DNA from: an uncultured Candidatus Berkelbacteria bacterium
GTDB lineage: Bacteria; Patescibacteriota; UBA1384; UBA12157; JAENIV01
Length of the DNA stretch: 64,000 nucleotides
Direction of reading: 5' to 3'
Assembly (NCBI GenBank): GCA_963698075.1
Contig: OY969116.1
Location: 606,131 to 670,130, forward strand
The notes beneath the pieces are model-generated. The model was not told the DNA's origin, did not search any database, and worked only from the letters and a program-made list of their open reading frames with translations. The translations under genes and the position numbers were made by a program. Shown here piece by piece: positions 9,056 through 59,675 of the stretch (the stretch's first letter is position 1; the number at the start of each line of letters is the position of its first letter).

Positions 9056-9066
9056 AATTACTCCTG

Positions 9067-9414: not shown

Positions 9415-9441
9415 TTTAGGCCTCCTTGCTTTTATCATAAA

Positions 9442-10411: not shown

Positions 10412-10505
10412 GCGCACGCACGGACATTCGGGGGCCCCGCCGCGCATGGCGGGGCCCGATTGTATCGTCTGACACGCTGAACCACACTCTACAACGGAGG
10501 TCATT

Positions 10506-11867: not shown

Positions 11868-11964
11868 TCCGGCCAAGTGCCGATCCCCAGCGGGCGGCTC
11901 GAAAGCCGCCCGCTGGATTCTGATTCACACGACACTCTGACGTCACAAGGAGAGAGTTACAACC

Positions 11965-13743: not shown

Positions 13744-13913
13744 GTCCCTCATGAGCACGCCTATCAGAACCCCCGGTCACCCGACCGGGGGTTCTTCATA
13801 TCCAAGGCATTGACATTTATCTTGCCTTCTGGTATACTATTTGAGACGCAATTGAGTAACAGCCCGAGCCAAAGAACAAATTGCGCGCACATTCACAAGG
13901 AGCGCCAGTGACC

Positions 13914-15590: not shown

Positions 15591-15613
15591 AGCGATCCCA
15601 AGAACCCTTCCCA

Positions 15614-15646
15614 CCCCCGCGTCCCACGCGGGGGTGTTTCGTATTT
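15614..15646 (+). terminator. Intrinsic terminator of cassette B
   Basis: CCCCCGCG-tccca-CGCGGGGG followed by TGTTTCGTATTT. Confidence 0.55.
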
Positions 15647-15662
15647 ACAAATCTTTCTCGTT

Positions 15663-25430: not shown

Positions 25431-27303
25431 TCCGGCGCCGCCAGTCAACCAACAACCAGGCAATTTTTGGCAACAACCAGCCAACACCGGCGCTTCAATC
25501 GCCAGTGGGCCGCAAATTCCTGAGTTTTTCCAGGCCGGCATGGCTTCGGTTTTGGACTTAATTGCCCCGGCCGCTTTTAAAATTGAACCCAGTTTTCTCC
25601 AGCTCGGTAACACTTTTGTCCGGAATCTGTTTGTCTTTACCTACCCCCGCTATGTCCAAACCAATTGGCTTTCGCCAATTATCAATTATGATATTACCTT
25701 GGATATTTCGATGTTCATTTATCCCATCGGCACCAAACAGATGATGGGACAGCTCAAGAAAAAGGCCGGACAGTTGGAATCATCTTTAGCTATTGAAAAA
25801 GAAAAGGGCATGGTTCGCAATCCCGAGCTCGAAACCGCGGTCGAAGATATTGAGGGTTTACGTGATGTCTTGCAACGCGGAGAAATGCGCCTTTTCCAAT
25901 ATGCCCTTTATTTTACCATTTATGCCAAATCAATTGACGAGCTTAATACCATCACCGAACAACTCGAATCCACTTTAGGCGGGATGCTCATTTACACCAA
26001 ACAGTCGCTGTTGCAAATGGAGCAGGGATTTAATTCAACTTTGCCTTTGGGCCTTGATGAGTTAAACGTCCGGCGCAATCTCGACACGGCTTCACTTTCG
26101 ACCACCTTTCCCTTCACTTCGGCGACCTTATCTTCCAATGATGGCATTCTTTATGGCCTAAATCGCCACAATAATTCTTTAATTCTTTTCGATCGCTTTG
26201 AGCTGGAAAATGCCAATTCCGTCGTCTTTGCCAAGGCCGGCGCCGGCAAGTCTTACGCCGTCAAACTTGAAGCCTTGCGCTCGCTCATGCTCGGCACTGA
26301 CGTGGTGGTAATTGACCCCGAAAATGAATACCAAGCTCTTTGCGAGGCCGTCGGCGGTTCCTATTTGCGCATGGCTCTGGATTCTGATAAAAGAATCAAT
26401 CCTTTTGATCTGCCGCGACCCGGCCAGCAAGCCACGGCCGGCGCGGCCGGTGAAGATATTTTGCGCTCCAATATCACCATGCTTCATGGTCTTATTTCGC
26501 TGATGCTTAGCGGTCTTTCGCCCGAAGAGGATGCCATTTTAGAAAAGGGTCTTTTTGAAACCTATGCCTTAAAGGATATCACTGCTGACATTGAATCCCA
26601 AAAAAATCAGCCACCGTTACTTAAAGATCTCCAATCTGTCCTACAAAATATGACCGGCGCTGAAACCATGGTTTCCAAACTTTCTAAATATACTGAAGGC
26701 ACTTTTAAGGGGCTTTTTGACCAACCAACGAACTTTGATCTTGGCTCTGGCTTTGTCGTTTTTAGCGTTCGTGATCTTGAGGACCAACTGCGACCAATTG
26801 CGATGTATATGATTTTAAACTATATCTGGCAACGAGTTCGCTTTAACCTCAAGCGCCGAATCATGATCATTGACGAGGCCTGGTGGATGATGCAGCATGA
26901 GGATTCGGCGAAATTTTTATTTTCCCTGGCCAAAAGGGCCCGCAAATACTATTTGGGATTAACAATTATTTCCCAAGACGTCGAGGATTTCCTCGATTCC
27001 AAATATGGCCGGACCGTCGTCAATAACTCTTCCTTGCAGATTCTTTTGAAACAATCAACCTCTTCGATTGATAAAATCGCCCAAACCTTCAATTTGACTG
27101 AGGGTGAAAAATTCTTGCTTTTGGAATGTGAGGTCGGCGAGGGGCTCTTTTTCGCGGGGCTCAATCACGTGGCGATTAAAGTCATTGCTTCCTATACCGA
27201 AGACCAATTAATTACCACTGACCCGCGCGAGCTTCTGGCCAGACAAACTGGTGGCACCACTGAGGCGCCGGGTGCGGAAAATCAACCCGCCGAAGGATTG
27301 TAA
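25411..27303 (+). CDS. VirB4-like T4SS ATPase
   Basis: ATG 25411 after AAAGGAGGAAG. FVRNLFVFTYPRYV motif, Walker A KAGAGKSY, Walker B IMIIDEAWWMM, and a VIDPENEY hexamer-interface-like motif. Confidence 0.75.
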   Translation: MPAPQPNPAPPVNQQPGNFWQQPANTGASIASGPQIPEFFQAGMASVLDLIAPAAFKIEPSFLQLGNTFVRNLFVFTYPRYVQTNWLSPIINYDITLDISMFIYPIGTKQMMGQLKKKAGQLESSLAIEKEKGMVRNPELETAVEDIEGLRDVLQRGEMRLFQYALYFTIYAKSIDELNTITEQLESTLGGMLIYTKQSLLQMEQGFNSTLPLGLDELNVRRNLDTASLSTTFPFTSATLSSNDGILYGLNRHNNSLILFDRFELENANSVVFAKAGAGKSYAVKLEALRSLMLGTDVVVIDPENEYQALCEAVGGSYLRMALDSDKRINPFDLPRPGQQATAGAAGEDILRSNITMLHGLISLMLSGLSPEEDAILEKGLFETYALKDITADIESQKNQPPLLKDLQSVLQNMTGAETMVSKLSKYTEGTFKGLFDQPTNFDLGSGFVVFSVRDLEDQLRPIAMYMILNYIWQRVRFNLKRRIMIIDEAWWMMQHEDSAKFLFSLAKRARKYYLGLTIISQDVEDFLDSKYGRTVVNNSSLQILLKQSTSSIDKIAQTFNLTEGEKFLLLECEVGEGLFFAGLNHVAIKVIASYTEDQLITTDPRELLARQTGGTTEAPGAENQPAEGL

Positions 27304-35146: not shown

Positions 35147-36475
35147 TTAGGCAACGTAGAGCTTTTCTTTGATCATTGTCAGTTCTTTTTTTAAATCATC
35201 ATTGATAGCAATTTCCTTTTCAATTTTCCCCACCCCGTGCATGATGGTGGTATGGTCTTTTTTGTTAAGTTCGCGGCCAATCTTGGGATAAGACAAATTC
35301 ATCTCGTGACGCAAAAGATACATCACGATTTGTCTTGGCCAGACCATGGCCTGGCCTCTTTTTGCCGACAAAATATCAGTGGCCTGGATTTGAAAATATT
35401 CACCCACAATTTTAATGATTTTTCCAACCGACAAATTTTTACCGCGTGACTCGACAATATCTTCCAATACTTTACTGACAACGTCCAAAGAGGCGGTCAA
35501 GCGATTTAATTGACAATGAGCCAAAATGCGATTAATCGAGCCCTCAAGTTCGCGAATATTGGATTCAATATTTTCGGCAATATAATGGACACAATCATCA
35601 TCTAATGGCAAGTTCTTTTCAGCTGATTTAGCCCGCAGGATTGCCTCCCGCATCTCTAAATTCGGCGGTTGAATATCAGCCACCATACCGGCGCCGAAAC
35701 GCGAAGAAAGCCGGTCTTGAATTTGAGGAATGGCTCTGGGTACTCGGTCAGACGTGATCACAATTTGACGGTTGCCTTGATGTAGGGCATTAAAGGTGTG
35801 AAAAAATTCCTCCTGCGTACCTTCTTTTCCGGCCAAAAATTGGATATCATCAACCAAAAAAACATCAACCCCGCGATATTTCTTCTTAAATTCATCCGCC
35901 TTGCCGTTGGAGATTGAAGAGACATAATCGTTGGTAAAACTTTCGCAGGAAACGTAAACAATCTTCTTTTTGGGTGATTTGGCTAAGATTTCGTTACCGA
36001 TTGCCTGGACGAGATGAGTTTTGCCCAAACCCACGCCACCATATAAAAACAGGGGATTGTAAACAACCCCGGGCTTGGAGGCAACCGCTTGGGCCGTGGC
36101 AGCGGCCAAACGGTTGGAATTGCCGATGACAAAATTCTCAAAGCGATATTTGTGATTAAGTTGGGGATGAATTATAGCATCAATTTCTTTCGTCGCGCTA
36201 TCAGCTATTTTTGGCGGCCTAGGAAGTCCTTGAGTCGAAATTTTATAATTGATTTTGGTAATTTGGGGTTCGATTTTTTTGATGGCCTCCAAGATCTGGG
36301 GATGAAATTTGTTTTCCAGCCATTCCTTGGCAAAGCCATTGGGTACGGCAATAGTTGTTTCTGGAGGAACGAAGTCCAAAATAAAAGTATCCTTAAACCA
36401 AGTGGTAAAATTGGCCTTGGACAAGGTAACTTCAAGCTCACCTAAGGCGGTCTGCCAGATTTCTTTGGGATCCAT
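35147..36475 (-). CDS. dnaA: Chromosomal replication initiator DnaA
   Basis: Walker A LFLYGGVGLGKTHL, sensor motifs and a C-terminal DNA-binding helix. Start taken at ATG 36475 (MDPKEIWQTALGEL). Confidence 0.9.
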   Translation of the reverse strand: MDPKEIWQTALGELEVTLSKANFTTWFKDTFILDFVPPETTIAVPNGFAKEWLENKFHPQILEAIKKIEPQITKINYKISTQGLPRPPKIADSATKEIDAIIHPQLNHKYRFENFVIGNSNRLAAATAQAVASKPGVVYNPLFLYGGVGLGKTHLVQAIGNEILAKSPKKKIVYVSCESFTNDYVSSISNGKADEFKKKYRGVDVFLVDDIQFLAGKEGTQEEFFHTFNALHQGNRQIVITSDRVPRAIPQIQDRLSSRFGAGMVADIQPPNLEMREAILRAKSAEKNLPLDDDCVHYIAENIESNIRELEGSINRILAHCQLNRLTASLDVVSKVLEDIVESRGKNLSVGKIIKIVGEYFQIQATDILSAKRGQAMVWPRQIVMYLLRHEMNLSYPKIGRELNKKDHTTIMHGVGKIEKEIAINDDLKKELTMIKEKLYVA

Positions 36476-36630
36476 AACCAAACCTTTGGTTTGGAAATTC
36501 GAAATTCTCACTGCGGAAGCAAGGCATTTAATTCGAAATCCCAAACAAATTCTAAATCCTAATATTTAAATTCTTAATAATTCCTTAATTTTCGGATTTC
36601 GACATTCGTGCTTCGGATTTCCACGCAATC

Positions 36631-42958: not shown

Positions 42959-43048
42959 GGAGAGGTGCTGGAGTGGTTGATCAGGCCGCTCTCGAAAAGC
43001 GGTAAGTCCGCAAGGGCTTCGTGAGTTCGAATCTCACCCTCTCCGCCA
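42959..43048 (+). tRNA. tRNA-Ser (anticodon CGA), type II with long variable arm
   Basis: Acceptor GGAGAGG/CCTCTCC. D-arm with GG. 5-bp anticodon stem CCGCT/AGCGG with loop CT-CGA-AA. 18-nt variable arm. T-arm GTGAG-TTCGAAT-CTCAC. Discriminator G plus CCA. Confidence 0.85.
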
Positions 43049-43231: not shown

Positions 43232-44593
43232 CTATTGTTTGATGATAACTTGCTTATCTTGTAGGTAAATTGTTGTATTCAGGCAGCCGATTAGCTCTCT
43301 TTTTTGTTCCTTGGTGCCTTCTTGAAAGATGTATTTGATAAAATCAGGCGGAATGAGCTCATTTTCTGATTGATCGATGTTTTGTCCTTCTAAAGTACGC
43401 TTAATCAGCATAATTTTATCTAATTCCGGTTTTAAGATTGGTTTAACTTCGACTTCTTGGATTGGTGCCTGTTTTAGGTGTTCGGTTAGCTGTTCTACGA
43501 GCTTTTCTTCTCTGATATACGGTTCGGAACAGTCAAAATCATTAAATTGAGTGCAGTGATAGTAAATATATCTTCTTTTGGTCCCACTACTGAAGTTTCG
43601 AGTAATCTCCTGGGCTGTGATCCCCGAGTTGCACGAGCCACATTTGAATAATCTAGTGAAATCAAATTGTTTGGTACCAGGTTTTGATTTCGGCGGGACA
43701 ACCATTTTCTTCTGTACCGCATCAAATAACTCCTTGGAGATAATTGGTTCGTACGAACCTTTGTACCATTTGCCATCGTATGTAAAAAAGCCGGAATAAT
43801 ATGGATTATTAAGCATTTTATAGATAACACTCAGCGTTAATACCTTACCGTTTCGAGATCTAAAATTAGTTTCGTCTTTTAACCAGTCATATATATCACG
43901 GCCCGAACAACCTTCATATGCAACTTTTTCAAATATCTGTTTAATAATCGGAGCTCTTTCTTTGTCAACAAATACCTTTTTTAACCCTTTACCCGAATAA
44001 TAATCATTTAGATAGCCTAAAGGTGCAAAATTCGGTCTAAATCCCATCTCACACTTGGTTTTCTGACCTCTTTTAACATTAATGCCCCTGTTATCGTTTT
44101 CAAGTTTGGCTTGAGAGCAAAGAATCATTAAAAGGAACTTGTCATTTGGTGAATTGGTGAAAATTTGACCATGAGTTCTGATTTCCTTCAAATAGCCATT
44201 ATCCATCAAATCGATTATCGAGCCCAAATCTCCGGCATTTCGGCTTAATCTGTCCGGTGCCCAGCTCAATATCCCTTGAAACAAACCATTTTTGATATCG
44301 ACTATTAATTGATTCAAGACTGGTCTCATGCCGGTCGCTTTAGCCGAATGACTTTCTCTTCTAATATCAGTTACCAAAAGACCCTCATTTTGTGCCTGAA
44401 CGGCCATTTCTCTTATCTGGGAATCAATTGAAAGGGCCTGCCGTTCATCGTCTTCGCTGCTTTTTCGAGCGTAAAGACAGTAACGAACAGCCGCTTTTTG
44501 GGCTTCTGGGGCTTGAATTGGCTTGCCGTTTTGCTCCTTAGGTAGTAGAAGCGGCGAAGTATTGGTTAAATTTACTCCTTGGGGACTCATCAT
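43232..44593 (-). CDS. Large serine recombinase (integrase)
   Basis: N-terminal resolvase domain with catalytic-Ser region AVRYCLYARKSSEDDERQALSIDSQ. A recombinase domain and a C-terminal zinc ribbon (CGSCNSG...C). 453 aa. Adjacent to tRNA-Ser. Confidence 0.75.
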   Translation of the reverse strand: MMSPQGVNLTNTSPLLLPKEQNGKPIQAPEAQKAAVRYCLYARKSSEDDERQALSIDSQIREMAVQAQNEGLLVTDIRRESHSAKATGMRPVLNQLIVDIKNGLFQGILSWAPDRLSRNAGDLGSIIDLMDNGYLKEIRTHGQIFTNSPNDKFLLMILCSQAKLENDNRGINVKRGQKTKCEMGFRPNFAPLGYLNDYYSGKGLKKVFVDKERAPIIKQIFEKVAYEGCSGRDIYDWLKDETNFRSRNGKVLTLSVIYKMLNNPYYSGFFTYDGKWYKGSYEPIISKELFDAVQKKMVVPPKSKPGTKQFDFTRLFKCGSCNSGITAQEITRNFSSGTKRRYIYYHCTQFNDFDCSEPYIREEKLVEQLTEHLKQAPIQEVEVKPILKPELDKIMLIKRTLEGQNIDQSENELIPPDFIKYIFQEGTKEQKRELIGCLNTTIYLQDKQVIIKQ

Positions 44594-44793
44594 TACTCCT
44601 TAAACCTCTAGGTCAAGGGAGATGATACCGCCCATGTTGGGGAAGTCAAGGCCTAATTTTTAAAATCAACCAAAATGTCCACAAACCAGTAAAAAGCTTC
44701 CCAAATGACTTTAGCTATGCTAAAATCAGAGTAGTTTCAGAAATACCTTAAAAATCGCCTAAATCTCGCTTTTGCGGGACATGGCTCACAAAT

Positions 44794-44900
44794 CACACGC
44801 AAATAAAGACGGTCTTCCGACCGCACCATTTGCGTGTGTCTGTGCCCGAAAGGGTACAGGGTAGTCCCGAAAGGGGCTGCCGCGGTTCGGGAGACCATTT
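44794..44900. ncRNA. Candidate structured RNA or recombination-site region upstream of the recombinase
   Basis: 11-bp stem CACACGCAAAT (44794-44804) / ATTTGCGTGTG (44828-44838) enclosing GACGGTC-ttcc-GACCG. Then two GNRA-type hairpins CCC-GAAA-GGG (44845-44854 and 44866-44876). No ORF is supported there. Confidence 0.25.
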
Positions 44901-46143: not shown

Positions 46144-47214
46144 TCAGTCCTTGATAATTTTTTCAATTTCTTTTCTGATGCCGTTACCTCGACAATGTTT
46201 TAGAATGCCAAGATAAGATTGGATACTCATCTCCAATAATTCTGCATCCAGCGAGCCGTCAAGAAACAATTGATAATTATATCGAATATTTTTTAATATC
46301 CGTCGTTTAGTTGTAGCCCGTAAGACTATATGGTGAGGAAATAGAACATATCCCAAGAAATCAATTCCCTGGGTCCATTTCTTTATATGAATTTTATGTG
46401 GATGAAGTTGCAGTAAAAGATGATTTTTTAAAAATCCTTCAAGAATAGGAATTAAACTTTCTAAATGTATTTTATCTCTACTGATAATGATGAAATCGTC
46501 TGCATATCTGACAAAACACTTAACACTTAATCCTCTTTTTACAAATTGGTCCATAGGATTCAAATAGATATTAGAGAAAAGCTGAGAAGTAAGATTGCCA
46601 AGCGGTATTCCCCGAGTCTTAAATGCAGAATTGACGCTTTCATAGCTCGTAATAATTTCTTTAAGGAGCCATAATAATTTTTTCTCCTCAATTTTTTCAG
46701 ATAATAGATCCATTAAAGCTTGATGGTCGACTGAATCAAAGAATTTTGAGATATCACATTTCAAGAACCAAACGGGTTTAGTGTTATTTTTAGATAATCT
46801 CCAAGCAAGCTTTTGGCATTTCCTAATAGCTTTATGAGTGCCTTTGTTTTTCCGGCTGGAGTAAGAATCAAAGATAAAACCTTTATCAAATAATGGTTCG
46901 ATAACCCTCATTATCGCGTGATGGAGGACCCTGTCTTTGACTTGGGCTTTGTGAATATGTCTTAGCTTCGGATCACAAATATAAAAAGAGGCATAACTTG
47001 AATGCCGATAAGACAGATTTAGGAGGTCATAATGTAAAGCAAAGATATTGTTCTCAAGGTTTATTCCGAACTCTCTTACATCTGCTTTTTTCTCTTTTCC
47101 CACCTTAAACTCTTTCCAAGCAGCAAATAAATTATTAAGTGAGATTATTTGGAGGTATAAATTATGAATAACACTTTCGCTATCAACAAATTCTTCGATA
47201 TTTCTATTATCCAT
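46144..47214 (-). CDS. Diversity-generating retroelement reverse transcriptase
   Basis: RT motifs: KPVWFLKCDISKFFDSVDH, IPLGNLTSQLFSNIYL (the DGR-diagnostic [ILV]GxxxSQ in place of QGxxxSP), RYADDFII (YADD), QGIDFLGY. 356 aa with a short thumb. It lies adjacent to Avd, TR and VRs. Confidence 0.85.
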   Translation of the reverse strand: MDNRNIEEFVDSESVIHNLYLQIISLNNLFAAWKEFKVGKEKKADVREFGINLENNIFALHYDLLNLSYRHSSYASFYICDPKLRHIHKAQVKDRVLHHAIMRVIEPLFDKGFIFDSYSSRKNKGTHKAIRKCQKLAWRLSKNNTKPVWFLKCDISKFFDSVDHQALMDLLSEKIEEKKLLWLLKEIITSYESVNSAFKTRGIPLGNLTSQLFSNIYLNPMDQFVKRGLSVKCFVRYADDFIIISRDKIHLESLIPILEGFLKNHLLLQLHPHKIHIKKWTQGIDFLGYVLFPHHIVLRATTKRRILKNIRYNYQLFLDGSLDAELLEMSIQSYLGILKHCRGNGIRKEIEKIIKD

Positions 47215-47532
47215 AAGACCTATAAATTCTATTTACATTTATATTCGGTTAATCAAACCTTGCCCAAAAAAGATCGTTATGGTTTAGGTCTGAAAACGGA
47301 AAATTTAGCGATGCAAATGCTCGAAATGCTTTTTGAAGCCAATGCTAAATCCGGAAGCCAAAGGGTTGAGATGCTAAACAAAATAGATTTGAAACTTAAA
47401 GTTTTACAGACCGTTATCCGACTTTGCTGGGAAGCAAAAGCGCTTGATGAAAATAAGTACATAAAACTACAAGAGCTTTTACAGGAAATCGGAAAAATGC
47501 TCGGTGGTTGGATCAAAGCAACCAAAATGTAA
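47164..47532 (+). CDS. avd: DGR accessory variability determinant (Avd, four-helix-bundle protein)
   Basis: YSVNQTLPKKDRYGLGLKTENLAMQMLEMLFEAN...LQELLQEIGKMLGGWIKA aligns with Bordetella phage bAvd (YPIAQSIPRKHGVAREMFL...IAEVGRILGSWIAR). GGAGG RBS. It is on the opposite strand to the RT and overlaps its 5' end by about 50 nt. Confidence 0.75.
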   Translation: MNNTFAINKFFDISIIHKTYKFYLHLYSVNQTLPKKDRYGLGLKTENLAMQMLEMLFEANAKSGSQRVEMLNKIDLKLKVLQTVIRLCWEAKALDENKYIKLQELLQEIGKMLGGWIKATKM

Positions 47533-47557: not shown

Positions 47558-47681
47558 GACTTCGGGAGAAGGAAACGCCGAGATTGTCATTCCGATTGTC
47601 AGGTTCATTCGCATTGACATTGACACCATCAGACTTGAAGTTGCCGACATTGACGAGCTTGCCCTCAGAGTTCCGACGTTT
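47558..47681 (-). repeat. DGR template repeat (TR), template sense on the minus strand
   Basis: 124 bp, homologous to VR1 and VR2. In template sense it encodes Asn-rich KRRNSEGKLVNVGNFKSDGVNVNANEPDNRNDNLGVSFSRS (AAY codons). It is not within a gene. Confidence 0.85.
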
Positions 47682-47968
47682 CCTACACTTTTCCATCCAA
47701 GGCAGCAGTAATATGTGGTTTTTACCCAGACATTACTTGTATTAATATGTGGCAGCATCCGCTTAATGAGCGAAACCTGCACCAGAAAAGTGTAGAGCAG
47801 TCTTAATTTAGTAGGCGAAGCGCATCCGTAAACACGCTTTCATTGCCTAATAACATTTTACCAGCAATTTAGTAATTCTAAAAGAAGAGATCTATATAAA
47901 AAATTTTGGATCGGCTGCCAACCCAGAGGGTTGGCAGATCAAAGTTTCAAATATCAACGCTCAAAGTG

Positions 47969-48937
47969 TCAACGACTGCGGGAGAAGGAAACGCCGAGAG
48001 CGCCACCCCGATCGCCAGGTCCATCCGCATCGACACAGACACCATCAGACCCGAAGCCGCCGACACCGACGAGCCCGCCCCCAGAGTTCCGACGACCAGT
48101 CCAAGAATAAATATTTTCTAGTAATCTTTGCTCATTATTTTCACGGTACATTATAAGGTCATAGAGAGCCTCTACCGGTTTTTGTCGTGTTAATTCAGTA
48201 ATTTTAAGCGCCTCTAGTCGTGCAGCTGCCTCTTTCCAATCAGAATCGATTAAACGCTCAATTTCCGAACGTTTGCCATTAAATTCTTCAACGGCTTCCT
48301 GAAATTCTTTTGGCAATGCACCACCCGGAAACGCCTGATTAAGATAGCCTATAATAGTATCTGTCTGTTCGAGATAGTTTTTACTTGTAGAATCGGGAAT
48401 AACTTCTTTGGAAGTAAGCGCCCATTCCATTTGTGGTGTTTCTTCGGTAAAAAATTTCTCGCCTTTATACCAATCAGTATCGTAGAGAACTTTTTCGTCC
48501 CTTCCTTCAAAACGAGCCGAAAGAAGACCCTCCATGCGTTCCATAGTCAGCGGGCTACCGTCAAGGTCACAATTTGCTCTTAAAACTAAGAATTGACCCA
48601 ACCCCTTCGCTTTTTCGAGTTCAGTTGCACTAAAAGGAATACTGGGGACTTCGGCGGAATTTATTTTTATCCCGAATGCCTTTTCGACTTCTTCTGGGCC
48701 CAGGCAATCACTACCTAAAATTTCTTTAGCTTTTTCAACCTGTTTGGCAATCTCACCACCCAATTCCGGTTCGGAAGTTATCCCAAATAGCCCTTTCAAT
48801 TCAAGAGCTTTTTGCAGAATCGCTTCATAGTCGGCGTCGGTCCTAGCACGACTTCGAAGTACAGTGATTTCTTTAGCAATTGTTATGCCTTGTGTCTCTT
48901 TTTCAGCGTCTTCTGGAGTTGGACCAAATTCGCTCAT
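47969..48937 (-). CDS. DGR target protein 1 (C-type-lectin/FGE-like C-terminal domain carrying VR1)
   Basis: C-terminus ..NIYSWTGRRNSGGGLVGVGGFGSDGVCVDADGPGDRGGALGVSFSRSR* matches the CLec VR pattern (..RGGSW...PDNRN..GFR). The body is paralogous to the C-terminal 250 aa of target 2. Confidence 0.75.
   Translation of the reverse strand: MSEFGPTPEDAEKETQGITIAKEITVLRSRARTDADYEAILQKALELKGLFGITSEPELGGEIAKQVEKAKEILGSDCLGPEEVEKAFGIKINSAEVPSIPFSATELEKAKGLGQFLVLRANCDLDGSPLTMERMEGLLSARFEGRDEKVLYDTDWYKGEKFFTEETPQMEWALTSKEVIPDSTSKNYLEQTDTIIGYLNQAFPGGALPKEFQEAVEEFNGKRSEIERLIDSDWKEAAARLEALKITELTRQKPVEALYDLIMYRENNEQRLLENIYSWTGRRNSGGGLVGVGGFGSDGVCVDADGPGDRGGALGVSFSRSR
47974..48097 (-). repeat. DGR variable repeat VR1
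   Basis: 21 mismatches against the TR, all at TR template-sense A positions (plus-strand T in TR becomes C, G or A). The flanking 25 nt including the stop are identical or nearly identical (IMH-like GGGAGAAGGAAACGCCGAG). Confidence 0.85.
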
Positions 48938-49023
48938 ATTTTTATTCCTTTACCTATTAAATAAAATTTGTATCGACCGCCTCCGGCGGATCAAAGCCAC
49001 AAATATCAAATAACAAAGTTACA

Positions 49024-49148
49024 GACTGCGGGAGAAGGAAACGCCGAGATCGCCACCCCGATCGCCAGGCTCAGGCGCACCGACATCGACACCATCAGAC
49101 CCGAAGCCGCCGACACCTGACGAGCCTGCCCCCAGAGCGCCGACGTTT
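49024..49148 (-). repeat. DGR variable repeat VR2 (contains a 1-nt insertion relative to TR and VR1)
   Basis: About 22 mismatches against the TR, all at template-sense A positions. There is one extra nucleotide at about 49116-49118 (plus strand caCCTga against TR caTTga). Confidence 0.8.
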
Positions 49149-51113
49149 TGTCCAGGTATAAACATTGGGAAGCAATCGCTCGCCTGTGGTTTGAAAGTAC
49201 GCCGCAAGATCATAGAGCGCTTCAGCGGGTGTTTGTCGAGTAAGCTCGGTGATTTGTAACCCTTCAAGCATTTCAGCCGCCTTTCGCCAGTCAGAAGAAA
49301 GAGTCTCAGCAATACCACCTCTTGCCTTTTGAAATTCATCAATGGCAGTCCGGTAAGCTTCAGGCAATGGACGATCTTTAAAGACTTGATTTTGTAGATA
49401 ATCGACGACCCTATCAGTTTGATCAAGATAATTTTTGCTTGTTGTCTCGGGGACTACGTCTTTTGAGACTAAAGCCCACTTCACTTCCATTTTTTCTTCG
49501 CGCAAGAATTTCTCGTCTTTATACCAGCAATCGTCTTTAAGTTTACCGGTTTTTTCGTCAAAAGCGTAAAGGAGCTTTTTTCCGTCTTTTACTTTACCGC
49601 TTAACTTTTCGTTAATTTCAGCCATAGTCATCGGCAAGCGCAAAACTAACATTTGCCCGAGCTCTTTTGCCCTCTCTAATTCTTCTTTAGAGAACGGAAT
49701 AGCCGGTGCTTCAACACTACCTTCAATACCAAAAGCATTTTTGGCTTCTTCTGGTCCAACAAAGTCTGCTCCCATGATCGTCTTAGCTTCTAAGATATCC
49801 GGCGAAAGCACCGTTTCACTGCTTCTTAAAGCTTCCTTGACAGAATCTGGAACTTCTGGTCTTGTCAATAAATCCGCAAGTTCCTTTTCGGTACGGGTTT
49901 TAGTAGTGCTTTCTGGACGGCTCGCTTGCTCGTCGAGCGTTCTTCTTCTTGTTTCGGCGGTCGGTACATAACCGACATGACGGATCAATTCCTCTAGTTT
50001 TTGTCTTTCAGTCGGAGATTCTAATTTATTAAGATAGTAATATCTTAAGGCGGTTTGGACGGTATCATTAATATCACCACTATAGAAACGCAGGACGAAA
50101 TCTCTGACCCGTCGGGGTTCCATGCGGTCATCGAAGGTAAAAGGTTGAGGTTGATCAGCACCTACTTTTCGTTCTTTGACCATTTCTTTGGCTGCACGAT
50201 GGAATTCTTGATACTTTTGCAGAACCTCCTGCATTCCTGGTATTTCGGCCAATGCTTCTGGTGAAAGTTTATTCTCTCTTGAAACAAGAAAGGATTTTTC
50301 CGATACTTCTTCGGTGGTTTGAACCAAACCAAAAAGAGCTTCAGTTGAATAATTAAAAGTGTCGGGTGGTAAATCAGTGACTTCTTTTTGATAAACCCAA
50401 CGACGAAGTTGAGCTGGATCGAGTGGCTCTCGACCGAAATAACCCTTGCCAGGCGGGTTCATAAAAGCGACAATTTTAGTTTTTTGTTTGCTGACCTCAA
50501 CTGATTCCGAGGCGTCTTCAGAAAGAACGACCTCGCCGTTTCTTTCTATCGCGTCTAAAACCTCATGCAAACGAATTAAAATGTTAGGGGCAGCGGCATT
50601 GATTTCGTCTAAAACAACTACTTTGGTTTTACCTTCCTCTTGTCTTAAACCGGCGGTGACTCGGCCATCGGCAAAAACATATTCTGGATCGTCTGGTTTG
50701 GTTCGGTGAGGATTAGGAATATAACGACCCATCAGGTCCTCAACATCGGTCGCGCCGTTCAAGTTGGCATAATGGACCTCCCAACCAAGCTCTGAACACA
50801 TTTTCCTGGCGGTGGTTGTTTTACCGACACTTGTGCCGGCCTCTACTAAGATCGGGTCTCCCTCTAACCAACTAACAGCTATCTTTTGTTGCAGTTCTAA
50901 GGCGAAACGATCACTAATATAATCTTGGTATTGCTCACGCTTGGGTGTAAATTCAGAAGTAGTTTTGGCTTTTTCTAAACGCACACCCAAATAAGAGACG
51001 GCAGTTTCGTCTTCTTGGACAGGCCGGCGAGTTTCGGGGTTGACCCGGGTCTGACTAACGGTCTCTTCCGATTCCGAAGCCGGATTAAAGTTAGATTCTG
51101 GTGAATTTGGCAT
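49095..51113 (-). CDS. DGR target protein 2: MoxR-like AAA+ (AAA_5) ATPase fused to a CLec-like domain; C-terminus frameshifted inside VR2
   Basis: Walker A ILVEAGTSVGKTTTARKM, Walker B KVVVLDEINAA, NPPGKGYFGREPLDPAQLRRW (MoxR/AAA_5 signature). The C-terminal 250 aa are paralogous to target 1. The reading frame ends TWTKRRRSGGRLVRCRRLRV*, whereas the alternative frame (ORF 49019-49426) continues ..GVGGFGSDGVDVGAPEPGDRGGDLGVSFSRSL* as in target 1. Confidence 0.7.
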   Translation of the reverse strand: MPNSPESNFNPASESEETVSQTRVNPETRRPVQEDETAVSYLGVRLEKAKTTSEFTPKREQYQDYISDRFALELQQKIAVSWLEGDPILVEAGTSVGKTTTARKMCSELGWEVHYANLNGATDVEDLMGRYIPNPHRTKPDDPEYVFADGRVTAGLRQEEGKTKVVVLDEINAAAPNILIRLHEVLDAIERNGEVVLSEDASESVEVSKQKTKIVAFMNPPGKGYFGREPLDPAQLRRWVYQKEVTDLPPDTFNYSTEALFGLVQTTEEVSEKSFLVSRENKLSPEALAEIPGMQEVLQKYQEFHRAAKEMVKERKVGADQPQPFTFDDRMEPRRVRDFVLRFYSGDINDTVQTALRYYYLNKLESPTERQKLEELIRHVGYVPTAETRRRTLDEQASRPESTTKTRTEKELADLLTRPEVPDSVKEALRSSETVLSPDILEAKTIMGADFVGPEEAKNAFGIEGSVEAPAIPFSKEELERAKELGQMLVLRLPMTMAEINEKLSGKVKDGKKLLYAFDEKTGKLKDDCWYKDEKFLREEKMEVKWALVSKDVVPETTSKNYLDQTDRVVDYLQNQVFKDRPLPEAYRTAIDEFQKARGGIAETLSSDWRKAAEMLEGLQITELTRQTPAEALYDLAAYFQTTGERLLPNVYTWTKRRRSGGRLVRCRRLRV

Positions 51114-51120
51114 CGTAATT

Positions 51121-51525
51121 TTAAATTCGATAAGTTAAACCAACTCGTTCCAAAATATTATAATTGATACTAATGTTTTTAAGTATTTCATCGGTAGTCA
51201 AAAAGATAATACCTGTGTCTTGGTATTCTACTGAGTAAACCGTTGGTTGCATCGTATCGTGGTCAAAAAACTCAATTTGCCCCGTGGGATACTGAACTAT
51301 AAAATCATACTCTGGTTTAATGTCGCTACCCAACACTAAGAAATTTCTCTTATTATTTTTAATATTTTGCGCTAACTGGATAGCAGATTTAGATTCTATA
51401 AAATTTTCTTTTTTAAAGATTTCTTGGAATTCTTTTAATTCAGATTCATTACGAGCAATTGCCAAAGAAATCTCTTTTTGGCCTATTGTTAAATTTAAAA
51501 ATTGCTGAAACTTTTTTGTATCCAT
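51121..51525 (-). CDS. Hypothetical protein co-operonic with the AAA+/vWA genes
   Basis: 134-aa ORF between the vWA gene and the AAA+ target, with an 8-nt gap to the downstream gene. Confidence 0.45.
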   Translation of the reverse strand: MDTKKFQQFLNLTIGQKEISLAIARNESELKEFQEIFKKENFIESKSAIQLAQNIKNNKRNFLVLGSDIKPEYDFIVQYPTGQIEFFDHDTMQPTVYSVEYQDTGIIFLTTDEILKNISINYNILERVGLTYRI

Positions 51526-51538
51526 TGATTATAACTTA

Positions 51539-53605
51539 TCAAAATTTATCATAGTTAGCAATTACTTCGCGAATCAGATCGGCTAACTTTTCAGCCATTT
51601 CTTTAATGTTGACATCGGCTAAGCTATTAGGATAATATCTTTCAACATGTTTAGTACCGGGACCGATTCCTAAACCAATCAATTTTTGATTGGTTTCACT
51701 TAATATCCTTTGGACCATTTTTCCTAAATCGTACGTTGCTCGTGGGTGCATGAGTGACTCTTCGGGTCTGCCGTCTGATAAAACGATTAGGAATTTTTCG
51801 GCAGCCTTTTGTCTATTCAGTCTTTCCGAAGCCCGCTCTAGTGCCCAACCGTCGTCGTTCCATCGAGCCTTGCCCGTATCGCTCGTGTCGCTAACTTCCT
51901 GAAGCATGCCGCCCATATTCTCTCTGATGGAACTGGCCATTGGCTCCCCGAAGCTTTGATATTCATAAATACGATCATTAAAACCGAGTATCTCAGTTTG
52001 TATGGATAGACGGTTTAGAACTTCAGCAAGCACAATCACCGCCTTAAATGTCTCGTCGATTTTTTCACCCTGCATTGAGCCAGAAAGATCAGCTAGAAGT
52101 GTAATCGCATAATCTTTTTCTGCAGGCAACTCACGTCGTTCCCAGGCCTTACTTTCCATTGCTGGTATGCCTTTAGCTTTTTCTTGGATTCTCTTTTTAA
52201 TATCAATTCTTTTACCAGTGCGAAAACCGCCATCCCATTGATGGGCACGCCTGGCAACGAACAACTCTCTTAAATCTTGCTCCAGCTGGTCAATAATCGG
52301 CAAAACTTCTCGGCGATATCGCTCGTAGATATTAGCGTCTTTTTTAAGTTCTTTGGCTACCAATTCTCGATATTTTCTGATTTCTTCAGATTCTTCTGGT
52401 CTCGTAGGAGGAGGTCCTTCAGAGACTTTTGGACGTTCGGAAATTTCTTCGGTTGCTCTATCGGCCTTCTTTTCGGGATCATCCGATAACTTGCCTCCTA
52501 TTTCTTCATTCAGTTCTTTTTCAAAATCTTTAAGTGCCGCTTCGGCTTTTTCCTGCAGTTCTTTTTTCTTTTCTTCTGGCAAAGAATCGATATAATCTTG
52601 TATTTTTTGCTTTAGCTCTTCGGAGAATGAGTCCATATCTATCGGCATAGGTTGACCTTCTGCCTGTTGCTTTTGCGCTTCCTCCAAAGCTTTTTTGATT
52701 GCCTCTTCAAGAGTTTTTTGTTCTTCAGGCGTTAATTTATCCGTTAGCTCTTGTGGTTGACCTTGACCTTCACTCGTGGCTTGTTCCATCTCTTTTAATA
52801 ACTCTTGGGTTTGCTGGTCTTCCATATCTTTTTCAACCAGTTTTTTGAATTCTGGCCAAACCCGATCTCTATTAATTTCATACGATCTTTCTGCATACCG
52901 ACTGATTAATTCTTCGCTTTTATCAGCTTCGGCTCTTGAAGGATACCGCCACCAAGAATCTCTGGCTGATTCCAAAGTAGTCGAGACAACGACTTTGACG
53001 TCTTCTGGCAAATCTTCAGAGATTTTTATTTCTTCACCTCTGATTTCTCCAAACCATTGTCTAATATATTCATATCCCGCCTGCATAAACTTGGGTTTGC
53101 GTCCAAGTTTATCTTGAGCTTCTTCGCTCATTTTACTCTGCGATTCAAAAAATTTTCCCCATGCAATATCAACATTTTCTTGATATTTTGGATAACTTTC
53201 AGCCACAAAATTATCACTCCTTGGATCTTCAATAAAGTTTGACATCGCCGAAAATCCAGGCTGTTGCCATACTTCCAAAGGAATAAATTCCGTTCTACTT
53301 ACCCTGCGATGGCCGCCTTCATGGCAGATTAGATAACGAAGTTCGTCAATCGGTTTTTCCAAAAGATCTTTGGGATCTATCCGGATTTTGTTTTCCTTAA
53401 AATCCCAATGCCAACCCTTTCCTGGTTCGTTCAATTCGACTGGAATTCTAAAATCTTTGCCGATAAAAAAGGCAAGTGATGATAGAATTTGTCTTTTCCT
53501 TTCAATCTCCGCAAGATCAGATTCAGTGAATTCAGGGTTAGATTCTGGCTGTTCAGTTCCTCCTAGATAATCCTCTGTTGAATTGTATGTTTCCGGATTA
53601 GCCAT
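51539..53605 (-). CDS. vWA-domain protein with N-terminal HExxH metallopeptidase-like motif
   Basis: LICHEGGHRRVS (HExxH). Acidic coiled-coil middle. C-terminal vWA with MIDAS DLSGSM (DxSxS) and ..VLSDGRPEE. The usual partner of a MoxR AAA+ ATPase. Confidence 0.65.
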   Translation of the reverse strand: MANPETYNSTEDYLGGTEQPESNPEFTESDLAEIERKRQILSSLAFFIGKDFRIPVELNEPGKGWHWDFKENKIRIDPKDLLEKPIDELRYLICHEGGHRRVSRTEFIPLEVWQQPGFSAMSNFIEDPRSDNFVAESYPKYQENVDIAWGKFFESQSKMSEEAQDKLGRKPKFMQAGYEYIRQWFGEIRGEEIKISEDLPEDVKVVVSTTLESARDSWWRYPSRAEADKSEELISRYAERSYEINRDRVWPEFKKLVEKDMEDQQTQELLKEMEQATSEGQGQPQELTDKLTPEEQKTLEEAIKKALEEAQKQQAEGQPMPIDMDSFSEELKQKIQDYIDSLPEEKKKELQEKAEAALKDFEKELNEEIGGKLSDDPEKKADRATEEISERPKVSEGPPPTRPEESEEIRKYRELVAKELKKDANIYERYRREVLPIIDQLEQDLRELFVARRAHQWDGGFRTGKRIDIKKRIQEKAKGIPAMESKAWERRELPAEKDYAITLLADLSGSMQGEKIDETFKAVIVLAEVLNRLSIQTEILGFNDRIYEYQSFGEPMASSIRENMGGMLQEVSDTSDTGKARWNDDGWALERASERLNRQKAAEKFLIVLSDGRPEESLMHPRATYDLGKMVQRILSETNQKLIGLGIGPGTKHVERYYPNSLADVNIKEMAEKLADLIREVIANYDKF

Positions 53606-53697
53606 ATTTGACTCTAATCTAATATTAACTAATAATCCCTAACTTTTCAATCTGAATTTTAGAGATTATTAAGACGAAAGGAGCCAAATCCTAATTT

Positions 53698-54591
53698 CTA
53701 AAATTCATTGTTAAAACCCAATCCTCGGCCATGATTAGCAAATAATTCTTTGGTTTCCTTGTCAATAAAATCTGCTAAATCCTTGCGAGTTTTCCTACGA
53801 GGAATCATACCTGTGATGCCCCTGTTATTAATGCCTATTCTTTTTACAACCATAAAGGATGTCTGCTGATCATTTTTTTCTATTATCTTTAAGATTAGCA
53901 CCGTAAACGCATCGACCAAATCATTGTGTTTGGTTACGCCAAAATTAAGTAGCTGATCGATAAGTTGGTCAGCGCCCTTTTCCGGAAACAATATCCATTT
54001 ATTGAATATCCAAGTTGCAGCCATCTCAAGTCGCGCTCGCTTATCCATGCCATGAATTTGCAAACCCTCAGCCCGAAAACAGCTTTCGCGGAGAAGCTGG
54101 GTCAAATATCCTTGAAGCATCACCTCCTCGACATAAATCGAGGTTGAATACCGACCGAAACTCTTGGCGATTATTTTAATCTTTTCGATAGTCTGGGGAA
54201 TTTGCATCCGCTCGTTAATCGGATTCGGCAAAATATATATTCTTTTTTCATCGCCTGAGCCGATAATCATACAGGAAACGATGGCAGTGTAATCGGCGCT
54301 GTCTTTTTCGCTTATTGCCAGGTCAACTCCCAAGGCATATTCGTAATGCTGTCCTCTAAGAGGTTGGGGCAAGTCTCGGTAATACCCAATCCAATCTCTT
54401 GAAATAATTGGCTCGCGATTGTCAATGATTTTTAGGAGGTATTCGCGGCTCCAAGTAAACTTATTGCCGATCTTTTTTCTTTTCTTTTTCAACCGCTTCA
54501 AGATTAGGGAATTTTCCGGGCCACATGACGGTCCCGTTATCGGTAACGATCGGATATTCCTTGTATACTCCGCTTCGAATGCCTTCGGCAA
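53698..54591 (-). pseudogene. Large terminase subunit, C-terminal nuclease domain, separated from the ATPase domain by a frameshift
   Basis: RNase-H-like terminase nuclease motifs (..GDEKRIYILPNP.., KHNDLVDAF). It overlaps the ATPase ORF by 131 nt in another frame within an A/T homopolymer-rich stretch (ttttttcttttctttttc, 54470-54490). Confidence 0.5.
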
Positions 54592-55282
54592 TTTCGTTTT
54601 TTAGTCGCATAAGGAGACAATCGCTATGCAAAATATTTCCGGTTATAACAACCTTCGTGTTTTTATCTCCGAGCGGCAGAATTTCGCTCGTAAACCAATC
54701 GTAAGTGGCGTCTCTACCCTCTTGTGTTTTCACGCTCGAAAGGTCGTCTGGATCGTCTACGACCACCAAATCCGGACGGTATGCTCCGTGTTTAATGCCG
54801 CGAATAGCCTGCTCTTTAGAGGCAACGATTATACGGGCCTTGTAATTTTTAATGAAGATTGTTTGAGCATTCCATTCATCACTTTCGTCTCTAAATGGCC
54901 CCAAGTCTTCTTTAAGAAGATCGTTGGTTGCCAATTCGTTTTTGAGATTTTTAAAATGCAAGGCAGCCTGTTCTTTAACCTGGCTAACAATCAAGATGAA
55001 TTTTTTGGATTGAACACCTAAGATTCCCCATATCGGGTAACTCAGTGTATTGATCACGCTCTTGCCTGAATTTCTGAAGGCGCACAAGACGACAAGGGGA
55101 ATTGACTGGTCTTCGGTTAAAGCAAATATCACTTTTTGAAACATTGCAGTTTTGTACTTTAAATAGCGGCTAAAATATACGCTGAAGAATACCTCATGAT
55201 TTTCTCTTGTCAGTGCAATTCTTGTGGCTTTGTCTTTTTTAATGTAATCAAACAAGTTATTTTTTCTTTTTTTGCGTTTCAT
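54461..55282 (-). CDS. Large terminase subunit, N-terminal ATPase domain
   Basis: Walker A CAFRNSGKS, Walker B/coupling LVVVDDPDD and VVITGN. Confidence 0.55.
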   Translation of the reverse strand: MKRKKRKNNLFDYIKKDKATRIALTRENHEVFFSVYFSRYLKYKTAMFQKVIFALTEDQSIPLVVLCAFRNSGKSVINTLSYPIWGILGVQSKKFILIVSQVKEQAALHFKNLKNELATNDLLKEDLGPFRDESDEWNAQTIFIKNYKARIIVASKEQAIRGIKHGAYRPDLVVVDDPDDLSSVKTQEGRDATYDWFTSEILPLGDKNTKVVITGNILHSDCLLMRLKNEIAEGIRSGVYKEYPIVTDNGTVMWPGKFPNLEAVEKEKKKDRQ

Positions 55283-55706
55283 TTTTGCTCCTTTTAGTTT
55301 TAATTAAAGAAGCCAGTTCAAGAGCTTTCTTGATACTTGCTTCTTGTTCTGGTGTTAATTTTTCGTTTTGGGTCGTGATGTTACCACTAACCTCAAGTTT
55401 ATTGGCATAGGCTTTATGCCTATGATTTAACCAATAAAATATTGCACTTATATTCTGATCTTTTATTGCTTGAAGTAGTTGACTTTCGGTTAGGTCGTTT
55501 ACTAAAGCGATGCCTTCTTGAAGTGCAAGATCGGCAGCTCTAGCGAACTTTTTATCGTGGTTGTACCAGCGATAATAAGTTTGGCGAGAAATACTAGATT
55601 TTTCGCAAGAGGCTTGGATAATTGGGATTCTCTTGAGATTTTCAATAAAGATTTCTTTTTGTTTTACTTTTCTAATTTCAATTTTTCTGGATTCACCTTT
55701 AAACAT
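55257..55706 (-). CDS. Small terminase subunit-like HTH protein
   Basis: 149 aa. HTH SISRQTYYRWYNHDKKFARAADLAL. Immediately upstream of the large terminase. Confidence 0.45.
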   Translation of the reverse strand: MFKGESRKIEIRKVKQKEIFIENLKRIPIIQASCEKSSISRQTYYRWYNHDKKFARAADLALQEGIALVNDLTESQLLQAIKDQNISAIFYWLNHRHKAYANKLEVSGNITTQNEKLTPEQEASIKKALELASLIKTKRSKNETQKKKK

Positions 55707-58659: not shown

Positions 58660-58798
58660 TGTTCTCCTGTTTACCAATCGCTCTTCAGGTGATATATTTA
58701 TGATGATAAATTACGAACACCAAATTGATCAAATGGTCCATAAACTTTATGGCTTAACTCATGAAGAAATCGAAACAATCGAACAAAAATCGCAGTAA
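58660..58798 (+). pseudogene. Remnant C-terminal tail of an N6-adenine MTase or Type IIG/BREX-PglX-like enzyme
   Basis: Encodes ..SSGDIFMMINYEHQIDQMVHKLYGLTHEEIETIEQKSQ*, the typical ..VDKLVYELYGLTEEEIKIVE tail. There are stops upstream. A second decayed copy lies at 57988-58078 and a third, different one at about 59700-59797 (..IDRPVHKLYGYARGNKSL*). Confidence 0.5.
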
Positions 58799-59675
58799 AA
58801 AACATCACTATCTCCCTAAGTATTATTTAAAAGGATTTACAAATAGTAAAAACGGTTTTTTTGTTTATGACAAACAGGCGGACAAAATCTTTAGGACTAG
58901 CCCCGATACTACCTTCTTTGAAAATAATTTAAATACAATAACCTTGTCCGATGGCAATTCTAGTGATTCTTTAGAGAATCTTTACACTGGCATTGAAAAT
59001 AGTTCATGGGATTCATTTGATAGGATTAGAAATTCAGATAGTTTGACTGTCATTGACCTCTTAGACAAGATGAATCTTTACCTTTTTTTACTTGTTCTAC
59101 ATTGGAGATTACCGAGTAATTTCAAGTATGTAGAAAACTTATCGGGGAAGATGTTTACAAATGACAAAAACCTCAATTTTATGTCTTTAAAAAACAAAAA
59201 TGGGGTTGATGCTTCTAAGGAATTTACGGAAATGCTGAAGGATTCTTCTGCTTTCAAAAAATCTTCAAGGTTAATTGTTCCTTTTGCGCCATTTTATGAA
59301 AAGAACTGGAGCGACAGTTTATACGATTGGAGATTTTTATATACTGGTGACATAAAAAATTGGTATGTTGTAGGAGATAATCCTATTATTACTAAAGGAG
59401 ATAATGACCACGATCCAGTAGATTGTCTTAAGGAATTCATTTTTTCTGTTTCTGGAAAGATACTTTTAGTCAACACTAACAAACCCATAAATAAAGGGCT
59501 TCCTTCTGAATTCGTAATACAATATAACATCTCCATGGTTGAAAGAGCCCAAAGGTTTATAGCATGCCCTAATAAAGACTTTTTAGAAGCGTTGATAAAA
59601 CACTATAAGATATATGTTCAATTTGGGAAAACAGACACTATAATTATGGAAATGTTTAAAATGTTAGAAAAGTAG
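58761..59675 (+). CDS. DUF4238-family protein (defence-island associated)
   Basis: N-terminal HHYLPKYYLKGF matches the DUF4238 signature HYVPQFYLKNF. 304 aa. The start codon lies inside the MTase-tail remnant. Confidence 0.6.
   Translation: MKKSKQSNKNRSKKHHYLPKYYLKGFTNSKNGFFVYDKQADKIFRTSPDTTFFENNLNTITLSDGNSSDSLENLYTGIENSSWDSFDRIRNSDSLTVIDLLDKMNLYLFLLVLHWRLPSNFKYVENLSGKMFTNDKNLNFMSLKNKNGVDASKEFTEMLKDSSAFKKSSRLIVPFAPFYEKNWSDSLYDWRFLYTGDIKNWYVVGDNPIITKGDNDHDPVDCLKEFIFSVSGKILLVNTNKPINKGLPSEFVIQYNISMVERAQRFIACPNKDFLEALIKHYKIYVQFGKTDTIIMEMFKMLEK

Follow-up and report, generated by a model that had tools for sequence, protein, structure and literature searches.

A 64,000-nucleotide stretch of an uncultured Candidatus Berkelbacteria genome (assembly GCA_963698075.1, contig OY969116.1, positions 606,131 to 670,130 of the forward strand; hereafter the window) contains a complete and genuine diversity-generating retroelement (DGR) with its targets, which occupies 46.1–53.6 kb and lies nearly all on the minus strand. 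The element combines an adjacent RVT_1-type reverse transcriptase (RT), a template repeat (TR) and two variable repeats (VR1 and VR2) related by a strong adenine bias, the accessory protein Avd and target-recognition elements, and one of its two targets joins an AAA_5 ATPase to a lectin-fold domain. We lean, at slightly better than even chances, toward reading this locus as a member of a DGR cassette type found widely across the candidate phyla radiation (CPR, Patescibacteria), which mounts a hypervariable cytoplasmic sensor on an AAA+/von Willebrand factor A (vWA)/peptidase module with a role in conflict or defense. The retroelement itself is composed of the following features:

46144..47214, minus strand: DGR reverse transcriptase, 356 amino acids (Pfam RVT_1, E 2e-26)
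47164..47532, plus strand, opposite to the other cassette genes: Avd accessory protein (Pfam bAvd, E 1.4e-19)
47558..47678, minus strand: TR, 121 nt, located by alignment to the 3′ ends of both targets
47915..47937, minus strand: perfect 10-bp hairpin (CTGCCAACCC, TCT, GGGTTGGCAG), ~37 nt past VR1
47974..48094, minus strand: VR1, 121 nt, 82% identical to TR
48977..48989, minus strand: GC hairpin (CCGCC, GGA, GGCGG), ~35 nt past VR2
49024..49145, minus strand: VR2, 122 nt including one inserted base, located by alignment to TR

The RT contains an LGNLTSQ stretch that we take to be typical of DGR RTs. The TR is adenine-rich (32 A per 125 nt compared), and VR1 and VR2 each differ from it at 25 positions, with 24 of the 25 differences at TR adenines in both cases. 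The 20-nt 3′ core of the repeat occurs in three copies in the window, compared to none expected by chance, and VR1 and VR2 share an identical last 25 nt that is one base apart from the TR. DNA folding of the VR1 hairpin gives −11.6 kcal/mol (z −4.9), a value equalled by 0 of 200 shuffles; the VR2 hairpin is weaker (−5.8 kcal/mol, z −1.5), and the same folding finds no comparable hairpin in the flank of the TR. The two hairpins occupy equal relative positions and have 3-nt loops with unrelated stem sequences, so that structure rather than sequence looks conserved. A VR 3′ segment followed by a downstream hairpin is the known layout of DGR target-recognition elements, and we infer that the VR 3′ segments and hairpins act in retrohoming. 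The predicted 5′ ends of the plus-strand Avd gene and the minus-strand RT gene overlap by 51 nt (47164-47214). In one related locus (L002) the two genes diverge across a gap of ~60 nt, and one of the two start codons in the window may therefore be miscalled.

Upstream of the retroelement, four protein genes are co-oriented on the minus strand and are read in the order vWA gene, small gene, target 2 and target 1, with the TR, the opposite-strand Avd gene and the RT gene following target 1:

53622..53650, minus strand: promoter-like site immediately ahead of the vWA gene (TTGAAA, 17 nt, TAATAT), from a consensus scan
51539..53605, minus strand: 688-amino-acid partner with a putative zincin-like N-domain, an acidic linker and a C-terminal vWA domain (Pfam CobT_C, E 8.5e-14; VWA, E 2.5e-7)
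51121..51525, minus strand: 134-amino-acid conserved orphan protein
49095..51113, minus strand: target 2 open frame, 672 amino acids, AAA_5 ATPase plus lectin-fold domain, truncated inside VR2
47969..48937, minus strand: target 1, 322-amino-acid free-standing lectin-fold protein (AlphaFold2 model; paralogy with target 2)

The intergenic gaps are 13, 7 and 81 nt, the last counted from the repaired end of target 2, and the VR-bearing domain is encoded on the same strand as its neighbors, in agreement with an operon-like arrangement proposed earlier from the sequence alone. Promoter-like sites are not more frequent in the region than in shuffles, which makes the 53622..53650 site weak evidence for a promoter. 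None of the four proteins contains a hydrophobic segment, with a top 19-residue Kyte-Doolittle mean of 1.31 compared to 2.88 in a neighboring membrane protein, and by this simple hydropathy test all four look cytoplasmic and without export signals.

Target 2 contains both the ATPase and a break in its reading frame:

50400..50828, minus strand: AAA_5 core, residues 96-238 (Pfam AAA_5, E 9e-14)
50814-50837, minus strand: Walker A
50604-50609, minus strand: Walker B
49118..49118, minus strand: additional A that puts target 2 out of frame, from the alignment of TR, VR1 and VR2
49019..49094, minus strand: out-of-frame remainder of target 2, comprising the 3′ portion of VR2 and the stop codon of the intact frame

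The sequence-only reading had recognized an AAA_5/MoxR-like ATPase in the N-terminal half of target 2, and the Pfam match and the Walker motifs bear this out. The closest solved structures to the ATPase core are midasin AAA domains (E 9e-21), and the match to NorQ is weak. In 24 sequences that are 50–65% identical to the window protein, the Walker A motif G93-T-S-x-G-K98-T-T and the Walker B residues D169-E170 are invariant, as are the sensor-1 residue N219 in an NPPG motif and R237-R238 in DPAQLRRW / NPPGKGYFGREPLDPAQLRRW. Because the catalytic motifs are invariant, the target 2 ATPase is likely to be catalytically active. The label MoxR-like is fair in the broad sense of the COG0714/AAA_5 clade: the predicted protein has a single AAA_5/AAA_3-type module with intact ATPase motifs and is encoded next to a vWA gene with a metal ion-dependent adhesion site (MIDAS), and several sources name homologs of target 2 'MoxR-like ATPase'.

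The same reading described the ATPase as fused to a diversified C-type lectin (CLec)-like domain; the fusion and VR2 are real, and what had been missed is an insertion that breaks the frame inside VR2. On the minus strand the TR reads GTC-AA-TGTC, VR1 reads GTC-GG-TGTC and VR2 reads GTC-AGG-TGTC, placing the extra base at two mutagenized adenine positions of VR2. As a consequence of this one-base insertion the 672-amino-acid frame stops at 49095 inside VR2, 25 codons early, and no intact diversified domain is encoded as assembled. An overlapping open reading frame (ORF) at 49019-49426 on the minus strand ends in ...GVGGFGSDGVDVGAPEPGDRGGDLGVSFSRSL, matching the end of target 1, and removal of base 49118 yields a 697-amino-acid protein that ends in ...LGVSFSRSL at 49019, again like target 1. 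All 23 of 23 aligned homologs read through the insertion point to ...GV(S/A)FSR-type ends, and the public record carries the truncated 672-amino-acid product. Either the extra base is real, perhaps an indel introduced by the DGR, and the target 2 copy is currently disabled, or the consensus is wrong at a VR that varies within the population. Since the VR2 3′ end and the downstream hairpin are intact, retrohoming could restore the target 2 frame.

Target 1 provides the structural view of the variable domain. It aligns at 52% identity (E 2e-85) with the 262 C-terminal residues of target 2, and its AlphaFold2 model is confident (predicted local distance difference test (pLDDT) score 90), with a helical region at residues 188-268 immediately before the VR strands. 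The model confirms a lectin/FGE fold for the VR domain, established on the paralog target 1 and carried to target 2 through the 52% identity, and identifies target 1 as a free-standing copy of the target 2 lectin domain, a point that the sequence-only reading had wanted checked. Searches of Pfam, NCBIfam, PADLOC and PHROGs return nothing for target 1, and no Pfam FGE-sulfatase match occurs among the cassette proteins.

The 688-amino-acid partner had been described as a vWA protein with a MIDAS DxSxS motif and an HEGGH motif, and both motifs are conserved in its homologs:

52820..53524, minus strand: putative zincin-like (gluzincin-type) N-domain, residues ~28-262
53309..53323, minus strand: HEGGH motif (H95-E96-G-G-H99)
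51566..52117, minus strand: vWA domain, residues 497-680 (Pfam CobT_C, VWA)
52076..52090, minus strand: MIDAS motif D506-L-S508-G-S510

In 64 homologs, the MIDAS residues D506 (64/64), S508 (62/64) and S510 (64/64) and the distal D611 (64/64) are retained, residues H95, E96 and H99 are each present in 62 of 64, and a candidate third zinc ligand, E126 in an NxIEDPR motif, is present in all 64. A model of residues 1-270 (pLDDT 81) places HExxH in a helix at 86-102 after three short strands and E126 in a helix at 118-137. Foldseek comparison to viral models gives weak matches of the N-domain to the N-terminal parts of phage CobT/VWFA proteins, metallopeptidase-domain proteins and SprT-like proteins. 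The N-domain matches no significant Pfam family, and a sequence profile search of the PDB returns nothing better than E 0.3. We assign a zincin-like fold to the N-domain with modest confidence based on the model, and by analogy it may act as a peptidase. The linker (residues 262-460) is 43% charged with a net charge of −20. The PHROG matches of the vWA domain are a family of unknown function and phage CobT-like ('CobS/CobT'-type) families, and identity to the phage CobT-like proteins is 22–30% over the vWA domain only. The 134-amino-acid protein encoded next to this partner has a conserved YDFxxQYPTGQIE motif and no match in Pfam, PHROGs, PADLOC or NCBIfam, with nothing better than E 0.3 in a PDB profile search; as speculation, it could serve as an adaptor or MIDAS ligand.

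The linkage of these genes recurs far beyond the window. Homolog searches returned at least 427 proteins for the fusion and at least 583 for the vWA protein (59–83% identical among 120 listed), and the named homologs of both are nearly all from CPR/Patescibacteria. Homologs that are 50–66% identical to the fusion over its full length come from lineages that include Howlett-, Magasanik-, Zambryski-, Doudna-, Sacchari- and Paceibacteria. A single scan through species-representative genomes recovered 70 related loci, mostly in CPR metagenome-assembled genomes. Among the 61 loci with at least 3.2 kb of upstream sequence, the vWA gene lies upstream of the ATPase gene in 60 and the small gene is detectable between them in 54; downstream, among the 45 loci with at least 6 kb, an RT is present in 32 and Avd in 30. 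Where Avd occurs, it is almost always encoded on the opposite strand. The gene tables of three related contigs give an identical gene order. The association of vWA and ATPase genes supposed from the window is thus not a chance juxtaposition.

A TR-like partner of the ATPase gene 3′ end, with mismatches all or nearly all at TR adenines, is present in 34 of 62 loci. These include loci in which tblastn with the window lectin domain misses the ATPase C-terminus (e.g. L038, L040 and L047). Since TR-partnered loci include such undetected, divergent C-terminal domains, the sequences indicate that one ATPase scaffold is combined with various C-terminal domains that bear a VR across CPR lineages. The number of targets per cassette also varies, as in some loci (L020, L024, L067 and L073) an additional gene for a free lectin domain separates the vWA gene from the small gene, and others (L026 and L068) carry a tandem duplicate of the small gene and ATPase fusion. 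In a further set of loci with at least 6 kb beyond the ATPase gene start, most of which also have the small gene, vWA and AAA genes occur with no RT or TR within 7–10 kb (L013, L014, L018, L032, L042, L046, L055, L060, L061, L066, L070, L071 and L072); the module may be able to do without a linked DGR, or it may be served by one in another part of the genome. Flanking genes vary and are often of mobile or defense type, including relaxase/TrwB, type I restriction-modification, trypsin, AbiE, Fic and large serine recombinase genes. Ten cassette contigs (L015, L028, L030, L040, L042, L043, L061, L062, L066 and L072) fall in bins labeled Gammaproteobacteria, Pseudomonadales, Geobacteraceae or Micrarchaeota, which are probably mis-binned or mislabeled contigs and not true hosts.

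These features suggest a model for the cassette in which one TR and RT, together with the opposite-strand Avd, would rewrite the lectin-fold tips of two paralogous cytoplasmic proteins. By analogy, the ATPase may form a ring that displays several hypervariable lectin tips, and the vWA protein may use its MIDAS site to dock on this ring or on a client, much as if midasin had been divided among several polypeptides. Capture of a ligand by a lectin tip could then be coupled via ATP hydrolysis either to remodeling of that ligand or to its cleavage by the tethered metallopeptidase, which would thereby be activated. Midasin, CbbQ/O, NorQ/D and the chelatases provide the analogies for ring and MIDAS function. 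The likeliest role of such a machine would be to recognize changeable intracellular molecules of foreign or host origin, and a function in conflict or defense would agree with the hypermutation, with a location in the cytoplasm and with the island-like surroundings of the cassette.

Several observations weigh against this interpretation. The target 2 gene is frameshifted in the window, and ~29% of the loci with enough sequence are without an RT or TR within 9 kb. PADLOC finds no known defense family in the cassette, with a best match to mad8 at E 4e-4 that covers the ATPase core only; we rejected this match as core-only similarity, and matches of the charged linker to ZorA/JetC as compositional. 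Ring formation, MIDAS docking and peptidase activity would each follow only by analogy with the machines named above.

The surroundings of the cassette in the window resemble an integrated element, with the following features on either side:

42959-43048: tRNA-Ser (CGA)
43232-44593: large serine recombinase, directly after the tRNA-Ser and on the opposite strand to it
44756-44881, plus strand: Rfam LOOT RNA motif, full-length match at 74 bits compared to a gathering score of 46.4
54461-55282 and 53698-54591: large terminase subunit split in two overlapping ORFs, both halves matching phrog_38 end to end
55257-55706: small terminase subunit
58761-59675, plus strand: DUF4238 protein (E 1e-27), just outside the putative element

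The gene order in the window runs from tRNA-Ser through the serine recombinase, an Amidase_3 gene, the DGR cassette, the split large terminase and the small terminase to two DNA methylases, which suggests that the region from ~43 to 58 kb, DGR included, is an integrated element. GC content falls from 0.38 to 0.32 at ~58 kb, and the LOOT RNA motif is located upstream of a small membrane-protein gene and the Amidase_3 gene. The terminase frame switch falls within a run of A residues at 54467-54490, and this split hints at indel errors in the assembly. Among four other overlapping same-strand ORF pairs in the window, Pfam matched neither member of three pairs and only the downstream ORF of the fourth. 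No terminase lies beside the cassette in any other related locus, and viral collections contain only two weak matches among isolated phages, both records of one haloarchaeal virus, and three IMG/VR contigs. We therefore rejected the cassette as a phage module and regard the phage-like setting as specific to the window genome.

Elsewhere in the window, a block at 6000-16000 has 52–62% GC, compared to 31–53% and mostly near 40% in the remainder, and carries a DnaK/Hsp70 gene (11965-13743) and an RNase J-like gene (13881-15590); its origin could be foreign, or it could reflect an atypical island of composition or a chimera in the assembly. Within 24690-27303, a TraG/VirB4-like P-loop ATPase gene (25234-27303) is preceded by an overlapping same-strand ORF, possibly another frameshift at an A-run, and a DnaA gene at 35147-36544 suggests that the window lies near the chromosomal origin.

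As for the window copy itself, we consider it a serious prospect, though one falling short of an even chance, that the ATPase target is a genuine pseudogene in a decaying integrated element and that target 1 alone is working here. The VR2 insertion truncates the protein, the adjacent large terminase is also split in two ORFs, and the region between the tRNA-Ser with its serine recombinase and the DNA methylase genes is arranged as in an integrated element. The VR2 insertion, however, falls exactly at two mutagenized adenines, where the consensus of a mixed population is easily wrong, and the terminase shift lies in an A run, a typical site of assembly indels. The rest of the 2-kb gene is intact and 50–66% identical to full-length homologs, and the VR2 3′ end, the segment in common with the TR and the hairpin are preserved, which would leave retrohoming able to repair the frame.

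As to function, the main rival to a conflict or defense role is an assembly or maturation chaperone, in which a MoxR-like ATPase works with a metallopeptidase-vWA co-chaperone in the folding, assembly or processing of a protein complex and the lectin domain only broadens the range of clients. The same architecture in jumbo phages has been described as an assembly chaperone (PMC7824862), a similar proposal exists for the tail of Acidianus two-tailed virus, and the terminase genes are immediately upstream of the window cassette, on its strand; the resemblance of the N-domain model to phage CobT/VWFA N-terminal parts and the PHROG matches to phage 'CobS/CobT'-type families point the same way. We nevertheless think a chaperone unlikely: the terminase neighborhood is found in no other related locus, viral collections contain hardly any close relatives, sequence identity with the phage proteins is confined to the vWA domain at the low level given above, and a housekeeping role has no obvious need of a hypermutable binding tip. 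Export of the variable proteins by an unrecognized route, for attachment of an episymbiotic CPR cell to changing host surfaces, has been suggested for CPR/DPANN DGRs at large and would accord with most DGR targets being binding proteins on the surface of a cell or virion and with a host-interaction role mentioned for some CPR/DPANN DGRs (PMC10907252, in a passage citing Paul 2017). This adhesion role is improbable given the lack of a signal peptide or transmembrane segment in any of the four proteins and the need of the ATPase domain for cytoplasmic ATP, and Roux et al. also report CPR targets without transmembrane domains. A cobaltochelatase of CobS/CobT type is suggested by the best Pfam match, CobT_C, and by JGI records that call some homologs 'cobalamin biosynthesis protein CobT'. 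We rejected this assignment, which has a negligible chance of being correct: the NCBIfam CobT model TIGR01651 reaches just 27 bits where its cut-off is 759 and covers the last 110 residues only, the neighborhoods inspected contain no CobN or other cobalamin gene, the HExxH N-domain has no Pfam family, and the ATPase carries a lectin-fold DGR variable domain.

The earlier observation is thus largely correct, with the qualification that the gene is frameshifted in the assembly, and the associated interpretation is reasonable as a mechanism and wrong about novelty. A programmable AAA+/vWA machine, as the sequence-only reading had envisaged, is plausible and has already been proposed for DGR-linked ATPases (PMC10907252), with the ATPase suggested there to act as a transducer of signals that the C-terminal region senses. 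The further suggestion of an undescribed class of DGR target does not hold: AAA ATPase–CLec fusions are the commonest DGR target architecture in CPR according to Doré 2024 (PMC10907252), there citing Paul 2017, and Wu 2018 (PMC5758913) found midasin-type AAA matches in one class of CPR DGR targets ('UVR4/Midasin'). Nor is the MoxR-vWA pairing new, as Iyer 2021 (PMC7824862) describes a jumbo-phage MoxR ATPase paired with an N-terminal-metallopeptidase-vWA protein as a proposed assembly chaperone. As a discovery the cassette therefore matters little, since the target class, the MoxR/metallopeptidase-vWA pairing and DGR-linked MoxR-vWA systems are already in the literature. Each element is known, and an explicit description of the conserved zincin-vWA and 135-amino-acid partners in CPR was not found in the literature searched, which left out Paul 2017. 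What our analysis adds is an ATPase target with two recurrent partners, a vWA protein with conserved HExxH...E and MIDAS residues and a 135-amino-acid orphan. This compact three- or four-protein system could be reconstituted to ask if DGR diversity drives ATP-dependent intracellular recognition in CPR.

The jumbo-phage MoxR/metallopeptidase-vWA and 'CobS/CobT-like' pairs share an AAA_5/MoxR-type ATPase encoded beside a vWA protein with an N-terminal metallopeptidase-like domain. The phage ATPases as described lack a variable lectin domain or DGR, similarity to the phage proteins extends over the vWA domain alone, and the CPR cassette is almost absent from viral collections. DGR-diversified lectin (FGS/CLec) domains also occur in the MoxR-vWA ternary conflict systems described by Kaur 2020 (PMC7159879) and Doré 2024 (PMC10907252). 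In these VMAP ternary systems the lectin is on the vWA component or a separate target and the peptidase is on the VMAP protein, whereas in the window cassette the lectin is on the ATPase and the zincin-like domain is on the vWA protein. The cassette encodes no VMAP protein, with a best Pfam match to VMAP-M5 at E 0.15 inside the vWA-protein N-domain, and its vWA component has no effector or FGS domain; we rejected membership in the ternary family on these grounds. Kaur 2020 excluded CPR organisms from its multicellularity statistics, and a text search of that paper finds no CPR cassette described; according to Doré 2024, most CPR DGR RTs fall in another clade than the RTs of ternary systems. 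It is a doubtful proposition, to which we give limited credence, that the gene set constitutes a distinct CPR-specific sensor-motor-protease conflict system not yet described as a unit. Such a system would carry its variable receptor on the motor itself and tether its peptidase via the MIDAS domain, unlike the VMAP ternary wiring, with free lectin paralogs as optional parts, and would amount to an anticipatory, antibody-like intracellular recognition device for genome-reduced episymbionts.

Midasin/Rea1 offers the same set of AAA_5, acidic linker and MIDAS/vWA parts in a different arrangement, with six AAA modules, linker and MIDAS in one polypeptide of ~4,700–4,900 residues that functions in eukaryotic ribosome assembly; in the window these parts are on separate proteins, and a putative zincin and a lectin domain are added. 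TvpA, Mtd and TaqVP, DGR variable proteins with characterized structures, are located on cell surfaces or virions and are not known to contain an ATPase. The window target differs from them in its ATPase, in having no Pfam FGE-sulfatase match and in the modeled helical region before the VR strands. The closest counterparts are the CPR AAA ATPase–CLec targets discussed by Doré 2024, with which the window fusion has in common an N-terminal AAA_5/midasin-like AAA+ domain, a C-terminal diversified domain bearing the VR on a predicted lectin fold, and a CPR host with Avd and RT genes of a linked DGR adjacent. Nothing essential separates the two, and what distinguishes the window copy is the frameshift in VR2.

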